Positions 1,621 through 34,990 are shown, counted from the first letter of the stretch. The stretch: DNA of 37,307 nucleotides from Candidatus Peregrinibacteria bacterium (GCA_016235895.1 JACRIB010000014.1:1-37307); one strand, 5' to 3'. Translations and numbers: made by a program. The notes: generated by a model from the letters alone, not told the origin.

Positions 1621-1971
1621 CTATTTGCGAATTTTGTTGTCTTCCGGGGTGACGTAATTTTTTGTTTCGATTTTTTGCATTTCGAAAATTTGTTTGTTGT
1701 CCTGCAAATTCGTGAAAGAGTTGGAGTCGGTTACTTTGGTGGTGAGGTCGATGTTTTCATTTTTTAAATCTTTGTTTTCACTTTTTAGTTTTTGGAGAAT
1801 ATTGCCTTTTTGAGCCCCGCTATTGCTGATGAAAAGAAAGGCTATGGAAAGCACAAAAATCATTGTGCCAAGAGTGATGACCAGCATACGAATGGTTCTT
1901 TTGGTTTCGCTTTTGAGGGTTTCTTTGGTGTGAATTTTGCCGTGTTTTAGTTCGTAATCTATGAGGCTCAT
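1621..1971 (-). CDS. Single-pass membrane coiled-coil protein (FtsL/septum formation initiator-like)
   Basis: Basic N-terminus, one TM helix, then heptad coiled coil; ATGA overlap with the upstream gene. Confidence 0.55.
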   Translation of the reverse strand: MSLIDYELKHGKIHTKETLKSETKRTIRMLVITLGTMIFVLSIAFLFISNSGAQKGNILQKLKSENKDLKNENIDLTTKVTDSNSFTNLQDNKQIFEMQKIETKNYVTPEDNKIRK

Positions 1972-2978
1972 AGGTCTGGTGCGACTTGATGAAATTGAAT
2001 TGGTATGACTCCTTCACTTGGTGGGGCCAGTTTGGCGAAAGCGGTTTTTGAGAGGTCCAGAACGCGGCCCGGTCCGAAAGGTCCGCGGTCACTGACTTTG
2101 ACTTTTACCGATTTGCCGTTGGATAGATTGATCACTTCCACGATTGTGCCAAAAGGCAAAGTTTTGTGGGCGGTAAGCATTAAACTTTTGTCATAGCTGT
2201 CGTGATCTTTGGTTGGCAGGCCTTGATAATATGTGGCGTTGCCGAATTCGAAGCCTTCCTTGTTTTGCATTGTTCTGTAAATGATTTCGGCCAGATAGCC
2301 GCGGGTCATTTTTTGAGTTGGATTGATGGTGTTTTCGTCACTGATGTCGATGATTTCATGGACGCCGGCGTAGCTGGTGTATTTGCTGTACCAAGCGTCC
2401 GGCGCGGTGTCTTTGAAATTGACATCCAGGCCGTTGGCAAAATTTATTTGATCTTTGTTTATCGTATTTACCGATTCGAAGTACATTTTTAGAGCTTCCG
2501 CGAGATTGATGGTGACATCCGGTTTGAAGCTGCCATCTTTGTAACCGTCGATGATTTTTTGGTCTTTGGCGGCGACTAAATATGGCGTGTACCAGGCTTT
2601 TAAGGGAGTGTCGGTGAATGGAGCCTTAGCATCAGCCGCGCACCCCGCGCGGCATGGAGCCTTAGCATCAGCCGCGCACCCCGCGCGGCATGGAGCCTTG
2701 GCATCAGCCGTGCTTGGTTTTACTGGTGGATCTTTGAAAACTCCGCTGGCCAGAGTAAGCATTTTTAGGGCTTCGGCACGATTGATTTCTTTGTTTGGCT
2801 TGAAGCTGCCATCTTCGTAGCCCTCAATGATATTTTTTTCTTTTAAATGGGAAATGGCGACAAAGTAGGCGTTGCCTTCGCGTACATCGGTAAAGCTGTC
2901 CGCGGAAACAGTGGAGAGGTTTGTAGAGAGGAAGATAGGAATGAGTAACGTGGTGGCAAGTAGTTTGGTGTTACTCAT
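1968..2978 (-). CDS. rlpA: SLH-domain protein with C-terminal RlpA-like (DPBB) lytic transglycosylase domain
   Basis: Signal peptide; SLH motifs (FTDV...IIEGYEDGSFKPNKEINRAE); RlpA motifs ATYY, TAHKTLPFGT, DRGPF...LDLS. Confidence 0.85.
   Translation of the reverse strand: MSNTKLLATTLLIPIFLSTNLSTVSADSFTDVREGNAYFVAISHLKEKNIIEGYEDGSFKPNKEINRAEALKMLTLASGVFKDPPVKPSTADAKAPCRAGCAADAKAPCRAGCAADAKAPFTDTPLKAWYTPYLVAAKDQKIIDGYKDGSFKPDVTINLAEALKMYFESVNTINKDQINFANGLDVNFKDTAPDAWYSKYTSYAGVHEIIDISDENTINPTQKMTRGYLAEIIYRTMQNKEGFEFGNATYYQGLPTKDHDSYDKSLMLTAHKTLPFGTIVEVINLSNGKSVKVKVSDRGPFGPGRVLDLSKTAFAKLAPPSEGVIPIQFHQVAPDL
2618..2710. repeat. In-frame 36-nt tandem repeat (2 full copies + 21 nt) containing a hairpin
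   Basis: ATGGAGCCTTAGCATCAGCCGCGCACCCCGCGCGGC at 2618-2653 and 2654-2689, partial at 2690-2710; encodes ADAKAPCRAGCA repeats. Confidence 0.95.
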
Positions 2979-16917: not shown

Positions 16918-17259
16918 TTAATTTAGGCTTTCTAGTAAGTTGAAAATTTTTATTTTTAATTCTGGTAGTTCTTTTTTGATAATGTTCCAGATCATTATAA
17001 AGTCTATACCAAAATATTCGTGGCTCATTACATCTCTTGTGCCAGCCATTAATTTCCAGGGGATTTCGGGATATTTTTTTCTAAATTCTTCTGGTAAGTT
17101 TTTCGTCGCCTCTCCAATTATTTCTAATCTTCTTACAACTGCGTCTTGAAGTTGGCTATTTTTTGAAAATTGTTCGTATGAAAAAGAAGCAATATATTTT
17201 TCTATATGATTTATACTATTGTTGATGTGTTCTAAAAAGACCTTAGGTTCTTTTTTCAT
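16918..17259 (-). CDS. HEPN (DUF86/HepT-like) RNase toxin
   Basis: DAVVRRLEIIGEA, PEIPW, RDVMSHEY (Rx4HxY). Confidence 0.9.
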   Translation of the reverse strand: MKKEPKVFLEHINNSINHIEKYIASFSYEQFSKNSQLQDAVVRRLEIIGEATKNLPEEFRKKYPEIPWKLMAGTRDVMSHEYFGIDFIMIWNIIKKELPELKIKIFNLLESLN

Positions 17260-17536
17260 AAATTATTTTTTGCTCTTCGAGTATTTTGGCTTTAAGGAAA
17301 GGATGAATTCCGTTATAGCTCACAAGATCGATTCTTTTGTTTAATTTTTCTTCCAGTGCAAATTTAAGTTCTAGAAAGTCGAATAGGCTTTTATTTTTCT
17401 TTAGCTTTACCAAGAAATCCACATCGCTGTTTTTTTTATTATCACCGCGAGCAAACGAACCAAAAACGGCGGCTTTTAATACTCCTTGGCTTTTAAAAAT
17501 CGGGAGAGCTTGTTTTTTTATTGCTGCTATTGTCAT
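17243..17536 (-). CDS. Minimal nucleotidyltransferase (MNT) antitoxin
   Basis: FGSFARGDNKKNSDVD (GSx10DxD); overlaps the HEPN gene. Confidence 0.9.
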   Translation of the reverse strand: MTIAAIKKQALPIFKSQGVLKAAVFGSFARGDNKKNSDVDFLVKLKKNKSLFDFLELKFALEEKLNKRIDLVSYNGIHPFLKAKILEEQKIIYEKRT

Positions 17537-18647: not shown

Positions 18648-21600
18648 TTATTCAGAAAATCTGTTAAAAGTTTTGCGGTAATATTGATCGAGTGTGGCGA
18701 TATTGGTTTTTAAAATAATTTTTGAGGGGTTGTCGCCGTTGTTGGTTTTTATTACAAAATTTTGATTGTTGGTTGTTTTTCCGAGTAAGGCAAAGGGTAC
18801 ATTTGCAAAATGTTTTTCGAATTCGGCTTGGCGTTTGGGGTCGATGGTAACGACGAAGCGGGATTGGGATTCGGAGAAGAGTAGATGGTCGAGGCGTGTC
18901 GGCGGAAATTTGTTTTTTGTCGAAAAATTGGAGTTTAATAGGTTTGGGGCGTCCCGAGAATTCGAGTTAAAACCTGGAACTTTAGAGATGTCAATTTCCA
19001 TGCCCATCCGTCCTGCGATGGCTTTTTTGGCCAAAGTTATTCCTAGGCCACCAAATTGTGGGCTTAGTGCTGAGGAAATTAGGCGCTTCTCGACGGCGCT
19101 GCGGAAGGTGCGATAAAGTTTGATGGCGGATTTGGCGTCGACTTTTGGAACGGAGTTGCCGATGAAAGTCTCACCGGGGATAACTTTTGTGATAACTTTT
19201 GGCGCGTTCTCGGGAACGGATTTTGCCAAATCTTTTTGGTATTGAAAATATTCGCTCCCGCCCAGTTCGTCTTTAGTTTCTCCCAAAATATAAATTAAAT
19301 CGCCGGGAAATTTTGGATCGAGAGAAACGGCTAGGGTAAGGTCATCCAGCACGCCAAGTGAGGAAATTAAAAGTGTGGGGGAAACGGAAATTTTTACGGC
19401 TTTGCCTTGCGCGTCAAATCCTTTGAAGTCATTAAACATTGAATCTTTGCCGGAAATATATGGCGTGCCATAAGCAACTGCGTAGTCATAAACGGCTTCG
19501 CAAGCGGCTTTTAGCTGGCCTAATCTTTCCGGTTCATTCGAGCTGCACCAGCAGAAATTGTCCATCAAGGCCAGGTGATCAAGCGTGCCGCCGATGGCGA
19601 TCACATTGCGCACTGCCGTGTCGATGGCGCAAGCGGCCATGTGATAAGTGTCGATTTCGGAATAAATTGGATTCAAGCCCTGCGAACAAATTACACCGCG
19701 GGTGCTTTCCGGAAATGGCTTGGTGACTGAGGCAACGCCGTTTACGCGGCCGCGACCTTGCAGCGGTTTTATGATCGTGCCACCTTGTACGTTGTGGTCG
19801 TATTGAGTGCTGATGAATTCGTAGCTGCAGATGTTTGGGCGGGCGAGCACGTTGAGCAGAGTTTGAGTGAGGTCTGCGGGCTCTGGAAAATCCGGTTCCG
19901 GATTGCGTTTGTGATTTGGTAAATCTTCAATTCTTGTGTAAGTAGTTTTTAAAGATTTTCTTGGCAGACCTTCATGCAGAAAATCCATCGCCAGGTCCAT
20001 GATTTTTTCGTCATTAAATTTTACGACACATCTACCATCATCGGTAAATTCACCGATAACCGTCGATTCTACGTCGCGCTTGGCCATTAATTCTTCAAAT
20101 TCTGTCAGTTTTTCCGATGGAACGGCGAGGGTCATTCTTTCCTGTGATTCGCTGATCCAGATTTGCCAGGGCGAAAGGTTGGGATATTTCGTGGGAACTT
20201 TTTCGAGATTTACGAGGCATCCGCCGCATTCCTTAGCCATTTCTGGTACGGAACAGGAGATGCCGCCGGCGCCGTTATCGGTGATGCTATGGTAAAGTTC
20301 GCGATCACGAGCTTCTTTTACGATTGCGTCGGAGAATTTTTTCTGGGTAATCGGGTCGCCGATTTGTACGGCTGTTGCGGGACTTCCTGAGCTCAAAGCT
20401 TCCGAGGAAAATGTCGCGCCGTGAATTCCGTCCATGCCCACGCGTCCGCCGATTACTACGATTTTATCACCTTTTTCGGCTTTCTTTTCCCAACTGTTTT
20501 TGCCGTTAATTTTTCGCGGAATGAGTCCTATTGTTCCCACAAAAATCAGTGGTTTGCCCTTGTATCCATCATGAAAATAAACAAAACCTTGCGGGGTCGG
20601 GATGCCGCTGCAATTGCCGCCGGCGTTGACTCCTTCGATCACGCCTTCGAGAATTCTGTGAGGGGGGAGAGCGGCATTGGTGAGCTTGGCGTCGCGATAA
20701 ATAGGTTCCTTGTCAAAAGGGTTGCCAACACAAAAACCATATTTATTGATGATCGGTTTGGCACCTTTGCCAAAGCCGAGGCAGTCGCGATTTACGCCGA
20801 TGATTCCGGTGATCGCGCCGCCGAATGGATCGAGGGCGGAAGGGCTGTTGTGGGTTTCGGCTTTGTCGGTAATTATCCAGTTTTCATCGAAAATAATTCC
20901 GCCGGCATTGTCGGAGAAAACTGACATACAAAAGTCTCCTTTTGTAGGTTCAGGCTTAGCTCGGCCTGGCAGAGCCAGATCCTCGCTTTCGCCTTCGCGC
21001 TCGGACCGTGTCCTCGCTTTTGCTTTTCTAATATCGTTAGTCGCTTTCTTGATATAGCCTTTATATAACCCTTGCTCGTTTTGTAAAGCTCGCTCCTGCT
21101 CACGACCGGCTAAACCAGATCGTTCGCCGTCGCTGCGCACTCGCGCTGTGCGCTCGTTATCATCAATTTTTGCGGCGAAGATGGTATGCTTGCAATGTTC
21201 GGACCAGGTTTGAGCGAGAGATTCCAGTTCGATGTCGGTGGGTGGGCGATCTTCTTTTGCAAAATATTTTTTTATGACTTCAAGCGAATCTTTTTCCAGC
21301 GCTAGCGGTCCGCGACGTGTACCGTCTTTGTTTGGAATACCTTCTTTACCTAATTTTAATAATTCTTCTTCGGAAATACTTAAATCCACTTTGTCGACTT
21401 CCGGCTTGCTGCTGAGGTGAACGAGAGGGACGGTGGTGTCCATGCCGTTATCAGCGGCGAATTTCTCGTGACTCTTTATCGTAATGCGTTGGATTAAACT
21501 GTTGGCTAAATTGTCACCGATTTTTTCGACATCTTTTTCAGAGAGCTCGCCTTTAATAAAAATCAGCATCGAGCTATGCACGCTTTCTTCTGCGCTAAAT

Positions 21601-21920
21601 TTTAGTTTGAAAAAGTCTTCAATCGTTTCACGAGCTGTGGTGGCGATATTATCGGTCACGCCGGGCAGAAAGCCGATTTCCAGGGCGAAATTAAAGGAAA
21701 TTTCCTTTTGCGCTTCGTCAATTCCGTATTTTTGACTCACCGGATTTGAGAGCATTTCGGCGATTTCTTTGAGTTCTGATTTTTTGAAATCTTTGTTAAT
21801 GACGTAAACTTCGACAACAGTAGCGGAAGATATATTAAATCCACAAGACTGCAGCTTTTTGGCCATTACTTGAGATTTGCTGTCGTTAACCTTGGTGAAA
21901 ATTTCGATGCGATGCGCCAT
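18648..21920 (-). CDS. purL: Phosphoribosylformylglycinamidine synthase PurL with N-terminal PurS-like region; carries in-frame inserts
   Basis: LPGVTDN, QTWSEHCKH, KAETHNSPS, DGIHGATFSS, DNGAGG, SESQERM, QYDH, ISGKDS. Confidence 0.95.
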   Translation of the reverse strand: MAHRIEIFTKVNDSKSQVMAKKLQSCGFNISSATVVEVYVINKDFKKSELKEIAEMLSNPVSQKYGIDEAQKEISFNFALEIGFLPGVTDNIATTARETIEDFFKLKFSAEESVHSSMLIFIKGELSEKDVEKIGDNLANSLIQRITIKSHEKFAADNGMDTTVPLVHLSSKPEVDKVDLSISEEELLKLGKEGIPNKDGTRRGPLALEKDSLEVIKKYFAKEDRPPTDIELESLAQTWSEHCKHTIFAAKIDDNERTARVRSDGERSGLAGREQERALQNEQGLYKGYIKKATNDIRKAKARTRSEREGESEDLALPGRAKPEPTKGDFCMSVFSDNAGGIIFDENWIITDKAETHNSPSALDPFGGAITGIIGVNRDCLGFGKGAKPIINKYGFCVGNPFDKEPIYRDAKLTNAALPPHRILEGVIEGVNAGGNCSGIPTPQGFVYFHDGYKGKPLIFVGTIGLIPRKINGKNSWEKKAEKGDKIVVIGGRVGMDGIHGATFSSEALSSGSPATAVQIGDPITQKKFSDAIVKEARDRELYHSITDNGAGGISCSVPEMAKECGGCLVNLEKVPTKYPNLSPWQIWISESQERMTLAVPSEKLTEFEELMAKRDVESTVIGEFTDDGRCVVKFNDEKIMDLAMDFLHEGLPRKSLKTTYTRIEDLPNHKRNPEPDFPEPADLTQTLLNVLARPNICSYEFISTQYDHNVQGGTIIKPLQGRGRVNGVASVTKPFPESTRGVICSQGLNPIYSEIDTYHMAACAIDTAVRNVIAIGGTLDHLALMDNFCWCSSNEPERLGQLKAACEAVYDYAVAYGTPYISGKDSMFNDFKGFDAQGKAVKISVSPTLLISSLGVLDDLTLAVSLDPKFPGDLIYILGETKDELGGSEYFQYQKDLAKSVPENAPKVITKVIPGETFIGNSVPKVDAKSAIKLYRTFRSAVEKRLISSALSPQFGGLGITLAKKAIAGRMGMEIDISKVPGFNSNSRDAPNLLNSNFSTKNKFPPTRLDHLLFSESQSRFVVTIDPKRQAEFEKHFANVPFALLGKTTNNQNFVIKTNNGDNPSKIILKTNIATLDQYYRKTFNRFSE
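20939..21022 (-). mobile_element. In-frame structured mini-element copy A (78 nt) in purL
   Basis: Direct repeats CTTTTG at 20939-20944 and 21017-21022 (78 nt apart); shares CTGGCAGAGCCAGATCCTC with the galU copy; encodes ARTRSEREGESEDLALPGRAKPEPT. Confidence 0.85.
21074..21158 (-). mobile_element. In-frame structured mini-element copy B (78 nt) in purL
   Basis: Direct repeats GCTCGTT at 21074-21080 and 21152-21158; same hairpin layout and TACAAAA end as copies A and C; encodes RTARVRSDGERSGLAGREQERALQNE. Confidence 0.82.
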
Positions 21921-22575: not shown

Positions 22576-24204
22576 CTATTTCTTGAAATCTTTCATGTCA
22601 CTGTTTGAGATGGAAGTTTTCGCTCCATCCTCATTTTTGCCTGTGGAACTGGCGATGATGGTATAGGACATGTCTGATTCGAAGGAAATTAGCGCGTCGG
22701 ATTTTAGTGTTATTTGGCCGTCTTTGACTTCTACCGTGGCATTATTGGATGGAGTTTCACCACCGGCGTTTTTAATGGTGAAAGTATTGCCGCTGCGATT
22801 CAATTTATAATTTATTTCGTCCAAACAAGGATTTATGCTATTATTGCCGTAATTTTTGCACATGGTAGCGGAAACTTCGTAGCTGTCGGCGCCAACATCT
22901 TTAAAGGTGACATTAAATTTGCTGCCCTGCGTGGTCGCGTCTTTGGCCGGAGCGGTGATTTCCGGCTGATTTAACGGCTTTGGAATTGGTACGGTGATTT
23001 TTTTGGCTATGTAGCTGTCGTCTTCGAAAGTGATTTTTAAAAGATAGTCTTTGGATGGAAGTTTGAGTTCGTCATTGGTAAGGGTGTCGCTGCAGCGATG
23101 AGGAAAACGCGGGCGGTCACACATTGAACCGGTTTGGCTTTTGGGGTCGGTGTCCTTGAGATCTGTAAGGTACATTAATCTTGGTTGTAGAGCTGGCGGA
23201 AGGTCTACGGTAAGCGGCATTTCGATGGCGTATTTTTTGTTTTCTTTCAACTTCAGATCCGGCCTTTCCAAGTAAACGTCAAATTCAAAAGTATTGCCTT
23301 CCGGGTAACTGGTGTTGGTGCCGTTGGCGCTGGTCAATAAAATTTGATCGAGTTGAAAATTTGCTTTGGCGTCTTTTAGCACTAATGCATCAGGTTTGTA
23401 GAAAGTGTAAGATTGCTGTTCTTGTTCGTAAAAAGCTTTTTTATCCGATGAGTAATAGTAGTCTTCGCCATTATCTTTTATCGCTTTCATTCGATAGAGC
23501 ATTTCTGCTACTTCTTTGCGGGACATGGAGTCGTTTGGCAGAAATTCGTAGTAGTAAGGGCCTTTTTCTTCCGCTTTGGAAATATCAATGTGTTTTGTGC
23601 CAACGGTGTTGGTTTTCAGCGCATATTCCAGATATTTGTAGAACCAAAGTTTCGAATCTTGAGTATCTGCAGGCATGCCTTCTATGCCTTGAAATTTCCA
23701 TTTTTTTTCGGGAATGTCATTATTTGTAAACTCTATTGAGGCCATTTTTATGGCTTCGGCACGTTTGACACAAACGTCGGGGCGGAATTTTCCGTCTTTG
23801 TAACCTTCGATGGTTTTGTGCTCGCGGGCGGTGCGGATGTAGGGCGCATACCACTCGGAATCGGGTGTGTCCGGAAATAATTCAGCGGTGGATTTGCCGG
23901 AGTCTACTGAAAGAGTTTTAAAAAGCATTTTCAGAAACTCGGCACGATTTACGCATTTGTCAGGTTTAAACGTGCCATCTTCGTAGCCGTTGATGACCTG
24001 ATTTTGTTGCATCCAGAGGATGGAATTTTGGTAGTTGGTTTGATCGTTGACATCTGAAAAATCGGCAAAAGCCGGGAAAATTTGCGAGAAAATTAGAACA
24101 ACTGCAACTGCGAGTGGAGCAAGAAATTTTGAGGAAAATTTCATAGAACTGTCAAAATATTTACCCTCGTTGGCTTTATGAATTAATCTGTTTTCTGTAA
24201 ACAT
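22576..24204 (-). CDS. SLH-domain surface protein
   Basis: Signal peptide from alternative start 24144 (MKFSS...AFA), SLH repeats (INGYEDGTFKPDKCVNRAE; IEGYKDGKFRP), beta-rich C-terminus. Confidence 0.85.
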   Translation of the reverse strand: MFTENRLIHKANEGKYFDSSMKFSSKFLAPLAVAVVLIFSQIFPAFADFSDVNDQTNYQNSILWMQQNQVINGYEDGTFKPDKCVNRAEFLKMLFKTLSVDSGKSTAELFPDTPDSEWYAPYIRTAREHKTIEGYKDGKFRPDVCVKRAEAIKMASIEFTNNDIPEKKWKFQGIEGMPADTQDSKLWFYKYLEYALKTNTVGTKHIDISKAEEKGPYYYEFLPNDSMSRKEVAEMLYRMKAIKDNGEDYYYSSDKKAFYEQEQQSYTFYKPDALVLKDAKANFQLDQILLTSANGTNTSYPEGNTFEFDVYLERPDLKLKENKKYAIEMPLTVDLPPALQPRLMYLTDLKDTDPKSQTGSMCDRPRFPHRCSDTLTNDELKLPSKDYLLKITFEDDSYIAKKITVPIPKPLNQPEITAPAKDATTQGSKFNVTFKDVGADSYEVSATMCKNYGNNSINPCLDEINYKLNRSGNTFTIKNAGGETPSNNATVEVKDGQITLKSDALISFESDMSYTIIASSTGKNEDGAKTSISNSDMKDFKK

Positions 24205-29306: not shown

Positions 29307-29331
29307 GGGGTGGATTTTTCAATTGGCTCCT

Positions 29332-29771
29332 AAATGAATCTTCATAAGCCGAGTTTTGTAGGTCTGATTGGTTTTTGATGCCAGCCAAATCTTGTGATCA
29401 TCTATCTTTTGGTTGTTTGGAGATCCTTTAGTTTTTTGGCTTTAGGATCACGTTTGCAACTCGTTGCAGTGAGAAAGTTTTATTCATTTGGGAGAACAAA
29501 AACTTTTCCATCTCACCTTGCACCTCGTAGGGTTTACCAACTTCCCGACGAAATGTCGGGGTTTCCCGCTGAACGGGACTTTTCACCTTTCACCCCACCT
29601 TGCGGCGGGACTAGTATTGTCTCTGTGGCACTTTCCCTCAAAGGTTTTTTTCTTGCGAATTATGGCCTTTGCGGCGCGCTGTTAGCGGCTACGATTTCCC
29701 GTGGTGTCCGGACTTTCCTCTCTGATAATGGCTTTTGCAAGCCTAATCAAAGCGATCACTCCAACTCATTT
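29332..29771 (-). ncRNA. rnpB: RNase P RNA
   Basis: GAGGAAAGTCC (29720-29710), AGTGCCACAGA (29632-29622), GGTAAACCC (29538-29530), ACAAAACTCGGCTTA (29359-29345), complementary P1 ends; boundaries approximate. Confidence 0.93.
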
Positions 29772-29783
29772 AAGAGCGGGGTT

Positions 29784-32559: not shown

Positions 32560-33513
32560 TTATTTTTTTATACTTTTCAAAAACCTCAAATATTCGCCGC
32601 TTAATTCTTTATGCTTTAGGGCGAAGTGCGTGACGGCTTTGAGGTAGCCGAGTTTGTCGCCGGTGTCGAAGCGGGCGCCGCTGATTTCGTAGCCGTAAAT
32701 GGGGGAGTGTTTGATGAATTTGCGCATGCCGTCGATGAGCCTAATTTCTTTATTTTGTAAGCTCGGCTGCGTTCGGACTGGCAGAGCCAGATCCTCACTT
32801 TGCCTGCGCCCTCGGCCTGTGGCCTCGGTTTGTAAGCTCACTGTTTTTTCCAGGTCTTTCAATAGCTCCGGCGTGACGATGTATTTGCCGATAATGGCGA
32901 GGTTGGAGGGGGCCTTTGAGGGCTTTGGTTTTTCAACCAGGCTTTTGATTTTGTGGAGTTGATGAATGTGGTTTTTGGCTTTTTCTTGTTCACATTCTAC
33001 AATGCCATATTTTTCCGAATCCTTTTTGCCGATTTTGTGGAGGCCGATGATGGGTGAGCCGAGTTTTTCATATTCTTTTATTAACTGGGCGATGGCGGGA
33101 GTTTTGCTGTCATAAATATCGTCACCGAAGAGGACGGCAAAGGGTTCGTTCTTCACAAATTCTTTGGCGCAGAGGATGGCGTGGCCGTCGCCAAGCGGTT
33201 TAGGCTGTCTGACGTAGCTGAATTTGGCCATCTTTTCAATTTTTTCTAGTTCGCGGATAGCTTTTTGTTTGCCGTTTTTTTCGAGGTGCGAAATTAATTT
33301 TGGCGAAATATCAAAATAATCTTCGATGGATTGTTTGCCTTCGGCGGTGATAATGATGATCTCTGTAATTCCGCTTGCTACAGCCTCTTCAACGAGGTAT
33401 TGAATGCAGGGTTTGTCAACGATCGGCAGCATTTCCTTGGGCTGGGATTTTGTGGCGGGAAGAAAACGAGTGCCGAGTCCGGCGGCGGGAATAATAGCTT
33501 TGCGGATTTTCAT
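32560..33513 (-). CDS. galU: UTP--glucose-1-phosphate uridylyltransferase with in-frame insert
   Basis: IPAAGLGTRFLPATK..PKEMLP, RQ..PLGDGHA, VEKP, RFDTG.KLGY. Confidence 0.95.
   Translation of the reverse strand: MKIRKAIIPAAGLGTRFLPATKSQPKEMLPIVDKPCIQYLVEEAVASGITEIIIITAEGKQSIEDYFDISPKLISHLEKNGKQKAIRELEKIEKMAKFSYVRQPKPLGDGHAILCAKEFVKNEPFAVLFGDDIYDSKTPAIAQLIKEYEKLGSPIIGLHKIGKKDSEKYGIVECEQEKAKNHIHQLHKIKSLVEKPKPSKAPSNLAIIGKYIVTPELLKDLEKTVSLQTEATGRGRRQSEDLALPVRTQPSLQNKEIRLIDGMRKFIKHSPIYGYEISGARFDTGDKLGYLKAVTHFALKHKELSGEYLRFLKSIKK
32754..32839 (-). mobile_element. In-frame structured mini-element copy C (75 nt) in galU
   Basis: 11-bp direct repeats TTTGTAAGCTC at 32754-32764 and 32829-32839; homologous to the purL copies; encodes SLQ-TEATGRGRRQSEDLALPVRTQP-SLQ. 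Confidence 0.88.
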
Positions 33514-34868
33514 GAAAATAGATTTAATTGTTTTAAATGTTGTTCTTTTAGGCTGTTCTTAAGGTCATTTTGAGCTTTAAGAAGCCATTTTAAAGGTATA
33601 TAGTCTTGGGTCAGACCAAAGTATGGTGTTTGTCCAATTTTTTCTTTTTCTTCGATTATATTATTTTCTTTTAACGGCTTAAAGTAATAACCGGAAACAT
33701 TGGTGCGCGCCAGATTGAATAATGCAGCTATTTCTTTTTGGCTGATGTATTTGTCTGCGGTTGCCAGATGTTTTAATATTTTTTTTTGTTCATCTGTTAA
33801 TTTCATTGCATTTTCTATTCTTTCCCAACGTTCTTTGCCAAGAAGCAGCATTGCTTCGTTTGCTGTTAGGGTTTTACTAAGTTTATCGGCATTTTGGCCC
33901 AGAATATCTCTTATGCTGGACATGATTGAGCGAATATCTCCATTGTACAGATCATATAGACGGAAAATCACATCATCTTCTATTGGTTTTATGTATTGTT
34001 GTATGTCCTCGGATTGCAATATTTCCATTCTTTCTTCAAGAGCCTTTGTTATTTCTGTTTTGCTAAGAGGATTTACTTTTAAAGGTGTTTGGTGGAAAAT
34101 TCCTCTAACTCTTTGCTGTGAAGCAATTACATCGCTGAATAAATTATTAGGTCCTAGAAAAATGTAATATACGTCTTTGATTTGCAAAATGTCTCTTATT
34201 TCGTTGAAAAAGCTTATTGCATTTTTTTTACCTTCTTTGCTTGTTAAAACGACATCAAAATTATTTACGTGGACAATTAGACCTGAATATGGTCTTCCTT
34301 TGATTTTATTTTTTTTGATGAACTCTATTAGTTCAATGAAATAACCTTCGAGAGTGGTTGTTGATAGTTGAATTGGCTGAATCATGTTTTTACTGCCTCC
34401 AAAATCTGCGCCGAAGCCAAAGGCTGAGGCGCCAATTGAAATGTCGATAGTTTGACTAATATCAACTAGTTGGTTGAGTTTACCAAGAAGATCATTTTTG
34501 AGTAATTCTGGTTGTAATAATTTTATTTCTCTTAATATTGATCCGATTATTTCAATAAGAAAACTTCTTTTATTAAGCAGTTCTCCCGAAGCTTCAATTT
34601 CTCTTCTAAAGGAAAATAACAGTTTTGTTTTTTCGTATTTCCAGATGAATTTATGAAAATTTATCAGGCTTGTTTTTCCAACTCCAACCGCCCCACATAT
34701 TGTTAAACAAAGTCCGTTGCTTGATTCAAAAAGGTTATTGAGGAAATTTTTTTCCTGATCCCTTCCTACAAAGGCTTTTTCTATTGGTAAGTCTCCGCCT
34801 TCTATGAGGGCCGAAGTGTCAAAAGGGTCTTTTTTTAATCCAAATTGTTGCCAATTGATTGGTTGCAT
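33510..34868 (-). CDS. P-loop (AAA+/KAP-like) ATPase with C-terminal winged HTH
   Basis: FGLKKDPF, FVGRDQE, Walker A GAVGVGKT, degenerate Walker B LIVHVNNFD, GDIR, HTH SQKEIAALFNLARTNVS; AT-rich; start 34868 preferred over 34934. Confidence 0.75.
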   Translation of the reverse strand: MQPINWQQFGLKKDPFDTSALIEGGDLPIEKAFVGRDQEKNFLNNLFESSNGLCLTICGAVGVGKTSLINFHKFIWKYEKTKLLFSFRREIEASGELLNKRSFLIEIIGSILREIKLLQPELLKNDLLGKLNQLVDISQTIDISIGASAFGFGADFGGSKNMIQPIQLSTTTLEGYFIELIEFIKKNKIKGRPYSGLIVHVNNFDVVLTSKEGKKNAISFFNEIRDILQIKDVYYIFLGPNNLFSDVIASQQRVRGIFHQTPLKVNPLSKTEITKALEERMEILQSEDIQQYIKPIEDDVIFRLYDLYNGDIRSIMSSIRDILGQNADKLSKTLTANEAMLLLGKERWERIENAMKLTDEQKKILKHLATADKYISQKEIAALFNLARTNVSGYYFKPLKENNIIEEKEKIGQTPYFGLTQDYIPLKWLLKAQNDLKNSLKEQHLKQLNLFS

Positions 34869-34990
34869 ATTTCTATACATATAGGGCTTTTGCAATTCTG
34901 CTATAAGTCTAATACTCCTTAATGGATAATGCAATTAAGACTTTTATTGTGTTGAATAATGGTGCTATTTTTTTCTATATATCAATTTGC

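Follow-up and report, generated by a model that had tools for sequence, protein, structure and literature searches.

Rickettsia palindromic elements (RPEs) are small non-autonomous repeats that reside in frame in unrelated housekeeping genes, where they are translated, that also occur between genes, and for which no transposase is known (PMC10969869). In its behaviour, the element family reported here from CPR bacteria comes closest to RPEs, since its members are likewise inserted in frame and translated in housekeeping genes and have intergenic copies too. RPEs, however, measure about 100-150 bp and are palindromic throughout, whereas the CPR element comprises 74-78 nt with two short hairpins. 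Moreover, RPE hosts are Alphaproteobacteria rather than CPR bacteria, and a junction-like target and recurrent hits at the same codons are documented here for the CPR element.

A second point of reference is the IS200/IS605 family, which is described as moving via a single-strand circle with joined ends, leaving a precise donor joint, carrying subterminal hairpins and placing its left end 3' of a defined tetra- or pentanucleotide (PMC5027513). The CPR element is similar in that it lacks inverted terminal repeats and has a hairpin near the 5' end, and its left end may likewise join 3' of a short target without a classical duplication. A circle with joined ends and a precise donor joint would also suit its anatomy. 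In contrast to the strict tetranucleotide target of IS200/IS605, the CPR element uses a degenerate A-run, and whereas IS200/IS605 hairpins are subterminal at both ends, only the 5' hairpin of the CPR element is subterminal, the second one being central. A gene for the IS200/IS605 transposase TnpA (Y1 HUH) was found neither among the 35 ORFs of the window, by which we mean the whole stretch of 37,307 nt that was analysed, nor among the 12 ORFs beside L005 and L015, two copies in other genomes. To our knowledge, no IS200/IS605 family member comes close to the small size of the CPR element.

Two further groups share individual traits. REPs are extragenic and usually arranged as inverted pairs. 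The CPR element resembles the REP/BIME type in its short G+C-rich hairpin module that recurs across MAGs, but three of its five DNA copies are intragenic, its tandems run head-to-tail, and no RAYT gene is present in the ORFs examined. IS91 elements (Y2 HUH, rolling-circle) make no duplication, have a target tetranucleotide identical to the terminus sequence and give rise to tandem or multimeric products. An apparent lack of duplication, a target equal to the terminus and tandem forms are also seen with the CPR element; IS91 elements, however, are kilobase-sized and encode their own Rep-like transposase, and no such gene was found in the ORFs examined here. The classical definition of a MITE fails because terminal inverted repeats are missing, and an autonomous IS with the same ends was detected neither in the window nor in the 34 loci of our contig scan. 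A full-text literature search, judged by titles and abstract openings, returned no description of the CPR element. The best reading is that of an RPE-like, non-autonomous and site-specific element. We favour, as the probable explanation of the data, a family of 74-78-nt non-autonomous mobile DNA elements in Peregrinibacteria/Gracilibacteria-type (CPR) bacteria that is mobilised in trans by an enzyme at junction-like targets.

The minus strand of the window contains three copies (A, B and C) of the element, 75-78 nt in length, which are located in two protein-coding genes:

20940-21016, minus strand: copy A, 77 nt plus one ambiguous G, i.e. a 78-nt insertion in PurSL; covariance model 79.0 bits
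21079-21156, minus strand: copy B, 78 nt, diverged subfamily, in PurSL; covariance model 84.5 bits
32753-32827, minus strand: copy C, 75 nt, in GalU, sense ends 5' CGAGG ... TTACAAAA 3'; covariance model 80.8 bits
18648..21920, minus strand: host of A and B, PurS-PurL fusion (FGAM synthase), 1090 aa; typical orthologues about 975-990 aa
32560..33513, minus strand: host of C, UTP-glucose-1-phosphate uridylyltransferase (GalU-like), 317 aa; typical orthologues 288 aa

A and B are separated by a gap of 60 nt inside ORF 18648-21920 (-), and C lies inside ORF 32560-33513 (-). The nearest relatives of both host proteins are labelled Peregrinibacteria, Gracilibacteria or Patescibacteria by their sources. 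According to nhmmer and to the covariance model run without filters, A, B and C are the only full copies in the window. A 19-nt core common to A and C occurs twice in the window versus zero times in each of 100 shuffles. Rfam searches placed no family at the element when the whole window was scanned at gathering thresholds, and in E-value mode, covering 12 loci and the A/B region, the element matched no family either. A blastn search with copy C yielded no match in phages and a single 26-nt match in plasmids, which we take as chance. The covariance model also gave a weak match of 19.2 bits at 34412-34460 (+), consisting of the 5' hairpin and the 3' end without the central hairpin. This stretch is antisense to ORF 33510-34934, which has no Pfam family, and could be a decayed copy or chance.

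Several other features of the window were recorded on the way. The RNase P RNA (bacterial type A) at 29327-29772 (-) has 446 nt compared with the 367 positions of the model, that is about 80 nt extra. A 36-nt unit is present three times in tandem at 2618-2725, the first two being identical, within the gene for an SLH/DPBB protein, and a family of 86-nt repeats with four copies (2481-2842; 23740-24008) represents SLH-domain coding repeats in two genes. Genes for a HepT-like RNase and an MNT-type nucleotidyltransferase, likely a toxin-antitoxin pair, adjoin purQ at 16918-17536 (-).

The five full DNA copies (A, B, C, L005 and L015) were aligned together with a truncated one over 78 columns, which revealed fixed ends. 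All five full copies start with (S)CGAG at the 5' side and terminate with TAYAAWW at the 3' side. RNAalifold predicts two short hairpins, which in copy C correspond to the following positions:

32814..32824, minus strand: hairpin 1 of copy C, 4-bp stem with 3-nt loop, separated by 4 nt from the 5' end; copies show covariation in the stem
32775..32794, minus strand: hairpin 2 of copy C, the central core of the element and its best-conserved part, paired over 3 + 5 bp with a single bulge

In our 12-pair structure, 96.9% of the cells are paired across the aligned copies, and at three pairs compensatory changes have occurred on both sides (GC/CG; CG/AU/GC; GC/CG). The structure score was reached by only one of 500 shuffles, and slid controls all dropped to 15-40% paired. 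In copy B the central stem is held by two G-U pairs, which are possible on the sense strand only, although this is a single observation. The folding energy of the whole element is no better than that of shuffles (z -0.7 to +0.6). Hairpin 2 is centrally located, with about 24-27 nt between it and the 3' end. The ends of A, B and C are not joined by any terminal inverted repeat of at least 7 nt. By eye, the two halves of the element resemble each other in the alignment. A perfect 8-nt inverted repeat with a 4-nt spacer at 20927-20946 spans the 3' junction of A and is composed of the element end and host codons; we take it as chance.

Each of the three copies is flanked by direct repeats:

32754-32764 and 32829-32839: copy C repeat, 11 nt, plus strand TTTGTAAGCTC, sense GAGCTTACAAA, period 75 nt
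32754..32764, minus strand: sense-downstream member of the copy C repeat, equal to the element's own conserved 3' end
32829..32839, minus strand: sense-upstream member of the copy C repeat, missing from empty GalU orthologues
20939-20944 and 21017-21022: copy A repeat, 6 nt, plus strand CTTTTG, sense CAAAAG, period 78 nt
21074-21080 and 21152-21158: copy B repeat, 7 nt, plus strand GCTCGTT, sense AACGAGC, period 78 nt

These data agree with an earlier sequence-only reading of the same DNA, which had placed the copy C repeat at 32754-32839, had listed the three sense repeats as CAAAAG, AACGAGC and GAGCTTACAAA and had pointed out their unequal lengths of 6, 7 and 11 nt; all of them are in register with the periods of 78, 78 and 75 nt. 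As a chance control we drew 200,000 random window positions at a period of 75 or 78 within +-12 nt, the real copies being counted in. In-register runs of at least 6, at least 7 and at least 11 nt were obtained in 1.4%, 0.31% and 0.04% of the draws, respectively, so that jointly the three repeats are far beyond chance.

It had also been proposed that every repeat is a piece of the sequence formed when the 3' end of the element is joined to its 5' start, and this is confirmed by the CGAG starts and TAYAAWW ends of all five full copies. At this junction the repeats cover the positions about -6..-1 (A), -2..+5 (B) and -12..-2 (C), and each of them overlaps termini that are conserved in all five full DNA copies. 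Read from these junction positions, the only crossover that the A, B and C repeats could have in common falls on the final A, or the final two A, of the A-run. Since the 3' 11-mer of C, the 5' CGAGC of B and the 3' CAAAA of A are conserved at unrelated loci, the repeats are not copies of an arbitrary target. Across the DNA copies, the flanking identity amounts to 4, 6, 7 or 11 nt. A possible AA aside, the flanking repeats are probably stretches of identity between the element termini and a junction-like target and not staggered-cut duplications. The earlier claim that there is no fixed target-site duplication is sustained by this overlap with conserved termini, but all five DNA copies can also be written as AA-element-AA, which is compatible with a constant duplication of 2 nt.

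On the target side, the 5' flank ends in an A-run in all five DNA copies (gcaaaag, gatgataa, gcttacaaac, acacaaaac and cttataaatg). The motif is degenerate (AAAAG, ATAA, CAAAC, AAAAC and AAATG) and is reduced to AA at site B; at the hottest site, the downstream flank mimics the 5' start of the element as well. Empty orthologous sites show what such targets look like before insertion. Site B is without insert in 24 of 28 PurSL orthologues, which read IDD|NEDGLYK, and at site A deletion of the 78 nt restores the conserved native KAKG. In empty PurSL orthologues, the sequences of the A and B repeats belong to the gene itself (KAKG and DD|NE), and therefore both targets looked like an ...AAAA|(C)GAG... 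junction before insertion. Empty GalU orthologues, by comparison, read LEKA-ESATKDS-EIRL and are devoid of SLQ. Since the upstream 11-mer of C is missing there, it is possibly not part of the native target and could have been left behind by an earlier copy or have arisen by conversion. In P0003, P0004, P0005, P0018 and P0022, the GalU loop harbours inserts that are related, decayed or rearranged. The notion that the element integrates at look-alike targets centred on an A-run is thus supported at A and B but not by the upstream 11-mer of C. The same picture emerges when copies and empty sites are held against the junction motif: the five DNA copies lie 3' of an A-run and sites A and B are junction-like, but C is less clean.

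The same positions have been entered repeatedly. Among 120 PurSL and 120 GalU homologues we counted 31 insert segments of at least 12 aa, nine of which match element translations at z >=5, all nine in sense-strand frames; the signals of orientation and frame are, however, confounded by selection. Four proteins, P0002, P0126, P0129 and P0207, carry an insert at site B of PurSL. On a tree of 42 PurSL proteins, calculated with the insert columns removed, this occupancy needs four changes. A single clade comprising all four proteins is rejected (p-AU 4e-85), and tests of the pairs P0002+P0126 and P0129+P0207 gave p values of 0.036 and 0.46, respectively; these site-B groups were chosen with the tree already known. 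P0129 (PurSL site B) and P0018 (GalU loop) have the subfamily ending ...ERREPI in common, the window copies at those two positions end in ...RALQ and ...PSLQ, and P0002 (PurSL site B) and P0001 (GalU loop) carry subfamilies other than ...ERREPI. Because different subfamilies are found at the same PurSL and GalU positions, independent entry has to be assumed, which implies a strong target specificity. As regards site A, two separate insertions are unnecessary, as a clade of P0002 and P0122 is not rejected (p-AU 0.245), and the DK that follows KG in empty orthologues is missing from both.

Outside the window, a scan of genome contigs with a degenerate 22-mer, which recovers close relatives only, returned 34 loci versus roughly nine chance matches expected by our own estimate. 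Two of these loci, L005 and L015, contain full copies, and the remaining ones are chance matches or share the core. L005 and L015 are intergenic and belong to two other CPR MAGs (Gracilibacteria; Peribacteria); the full copies of the window and of these two MAGs score 79-91 bits with the covariance model. At L005, the copy at 1975-2048 (-) is followed, after a gap of 2-3 nt, by the 5' end of a tRNA gene in the same orientation, 1886-1972 (-). At L015, a 5'-truncated copy is directly joined to the full copy, resulting in a 1.5-mer (33 nt, 97% identity, 76-nt spacing), and the PurSLQ protein P0156 harbours two identical 21-aa element-derived units in tandem. The near-identity of the units in L015 and P0156 points to tandem duplication on the spot or to the arrival of several units at once, and not to two separate insertions. 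Consequently, the minicircle or tandem junction invoked by the sequence-only reading has a counterpart in the genomic head-to-tail junctions of L015 and P0156, but those do not prove a free circle; a circular or tandem intermediate is plausible.

At the scale of protein databases, a profile of the element peptides run against a set of 5.8 billion proteins gave 5949 candidates, of which only the six profile-source proteins passed E<=10, and against 1.84 billion representatives it gave two matches, both to unrelated repeat proteins of eukaryotic appearance. Since the 26-aa signal is too short, such searches are uninformative on the breadth of host proteins.

One way to account for these observations dispenses with an enzyme. 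A minicircle or tandem copy could recombine with A-run look-alikes through the 4-11 nt of identity, by illegitimate recombination or template switching, and deletion between the repeats would bring about precise loss. Such a process would accommodate the variable repeat lengths (4, 6, 7 and 11 nt), the L015 1.5-mer and the identical units of P0156, which resemble products of local slippage or recombination, and the lack of a nearby transposase gene among the window ORFs and the L005/L015 neighbours. However, arbitrary circle breakpoints would yield permuted copies, and the termini are sharp and identical in 5/5; the two hairpins kept by compensatory changes suggest a recognition structure; and homology of 2-6 nt can hardly provide the specificity that led different subfamilies to the same positions in two genes. 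We thus regard an enzyme-free process as unlikely. Microhomology as the driving force, which the earlier reading had inferred, is accordingly doubtful in view of the sharp termini and the hairpins.

Less probable still would be a conventional MITE that depends on a DDE transposase and always duplicates 2 nt (AA) of its target. There is an analogue for such a short duplication in TA-duplicating elements, the AA-element-AA notation suits all five DNA copies, and any repeat beyond AA would have been lengthened by chance because the targets are A-rich. Yet runs of 7 nt or more arise by chance in at most 0.31% of cases, and identity reaches 11 nt at C and extends onto the 3' side at B (CGAGC). Terminal inverted repeats of at least 7 nt are missing, the orientation is biased (9/9), and no DDE gene is encoded by the 35 window ORFs or the 12 ORFs near L005 and L015.

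The manner in which the host genes read through the element bears on a third alternative, according to which the insert is removed or skipped at the RNA level, either as a small intron or by ribosomal bypassing with matching take-off and landing codons. Bypassing is exemplified by phage T4 gene 60 and the byp elements of yeast mitochondria. The insertion periods of 78, 78 and 75 nt are multiples of three in all three cases and stop-free in the host frame. One and the same element frame is used in A, B and C (...SEDLALP... in A and C, aligned with ...GERSGLAG... in B), and an antisense frame is open in the three window copies, too. Copy C encodes 25 additional GalU residues, TEATGRGRRQSEDLALPVRTQPSLQ, and the inserted residues are rich in charged and small residues. 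In an AlphaFold model of GalU, residues 232-254 form a coil with pLDDT <50 between the helices 215-233 and 259-267; the low pLDDT predicted there may partly be due to the thin alignment of this region. The intergenic copies L005 and L015, on the other hand, have 74 and 76 nt and are not multiples of three. Judging from the reading frames, the survivors within genes are those with a length divisible by three and an open sense frame, and they are predicted to be translated as 25-26-residue insertions in loops of housekeeping enzymes. Such an in-frame, stop-free pattern is to be expected from selection on a translated insertion and argues against RNA-level removal, since this constraint would be needless if the insert were skipped. 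Admittedly, the repeats give identical codons on both sides (e.g. TTA CAA at C), as required for bypassing, and the sense-strand hairpin of B is maintained through G-U pairs. But the inserts are in frame, with no stop or frame break in the gap, they decay in place like ordinary loop sequence in orthologues, Rfam matches are lacking, and copies are present between genes as well. An RNA-level feature is therefore highly improbable. Finally, an immobile origin, be it vertical inheritance of a variable loop or convergence of low-complexity sequence, although in keeping with the position of the inserts in variable surface loops, can virtually be dismissed because two unrelated genes and the intergenic DNA of two other MAGs have this 75-nt DNA in common (79-91 bits), most orthologues lack it and its distribution is polyphyletic.

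We thus return to enzyme-mediated mobilisation, bearing in mind that all considerations on the mechanism are based on five DNA copies. Sharp termini in 5/5 together with hairpins kept by compensatory changes indicate recognition by an enzyme with fixed cutting positions. An enzyme acting in trans and encoded elsewhere in the genome would recognise the hairpins and would cut after the A-run, both at the element ends and in the target. A single-strand process of the HUH/Y1 type, as in the IS200/IS605-like "peel and paste" mode, would fit best, although rolling-circle transposition or site-specific recombination would also fit. The excised strand would close as a circle carrying the ...TACAAAA-CGAG... 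junction, the donor site would be resealed precisely, and the variation in repeat length (4-11 nt) would be incidental, reflecting chance identity between target and junction. HUH-type single-strand transposition is the best match because it combines fixed termini, covarying hairpins, the absence of inverted repeats and of a real duplication, insertion 3' of a motif resembling the element's own 3' end, an orientation bias and occasional multimers. With the HUH reading, a circle and precise excision follow naturally, without microhomology as the cause. The data are in line with precise excision but can be explained without it. The mobilising enzyme itself is something that we infer entirely: genes for HUH, RAYT or tyrosine/serine recombinases are present neither among the 35 window ORFs nor among the 12 ORFs beside L005 and L015. 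An inspection by eye, and by eye only, gave no guide tetranucleotide complementary to the target in the style of IS608.

With respect to the replication strand, GC skew is positive on the plus strand in every 1-kb bin and the cumulative skew rises steadily through 1-37307. The sense strand of all three window copies is the C-rich strand, which opposes the orientation rule of IS200/IS605 if GC skew marks the leading strand. The direction of replication is uncertain, however, since 27 of the 35 long ORFs are encoded on the minus strand despite the steady plus-strand skew. Either the majority of genes run against the replication fork, or the skew is no guide to the leading strand here.

The central hairpin recurs beyond the element family in the following loci:

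L001 1999-2110; L007, L010, L014 and L028; L017/L033; L022: core-bearing loci

This core of about 27-35 nt opens a different repeat of ~115 nt with two further GC hairpins, which is known from one MAG each of Nitrospira (four loci), a deltaproteobacterium and the Bdellovibrionales; TAA or CAA invariably stands in front of it. In the core variants L010 901-963 and L007 2195-2264 the stem is kept via compensatory changes, and L022 contains the centre of the element with different termini. The central core may thus represent a widespread REP-like module. The Nitrospira-type repeat of L001 is flanked by direct repeats of 45 nt (1949-1993 and 2109-2153, 96% identity, 160-nt spacing), which far exceeds the usual length of a target duplication. 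A second type of in-frame insert, starting with EPLKNDG(L/M)QG, was noticed in two PurSL orthologues, where its positions differ: P0156 (linker after PurL) and P0240 (columns 621-663 of the PurSL alignment). This suggests another element family that would be translated within proteins.

Going one step further, one may tentatively envisage an undescribed class of ~75-nt site-specific CPR elements that use a circular or tandem-junction single-strand intermediate and an enzyme in trans, and that find targets by mimicry of their joined ends; we consider this possible rather than likely. If it is true, insertion into essential genes would be tolerable, because it occurs in frame and in loops, and reversible by precise excision, with the same codons being hit across lineages, and minimal-genome proteins would receive an ongoing supply of new loop sequence. 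CPR genomes are very small, and insertions into essential genes should be costly; yet the element resides in enzymes of purine synthesis and sugar activation and has entered the same positions several times. For annotation, the element accounts for unexplained 25-aa insertions in CPR proteins. It also offers a simple natural system for two questions, namely how a transposase acting in trans chooses its target and how new protein loops originate. If the mechanism operates as outlined above, no smaller self-defined mobile unit with sequence-specific targeting would be known to us, and the "selfish DNA inside proteins" of Rickettsia would extend to a second, very distant lineage.
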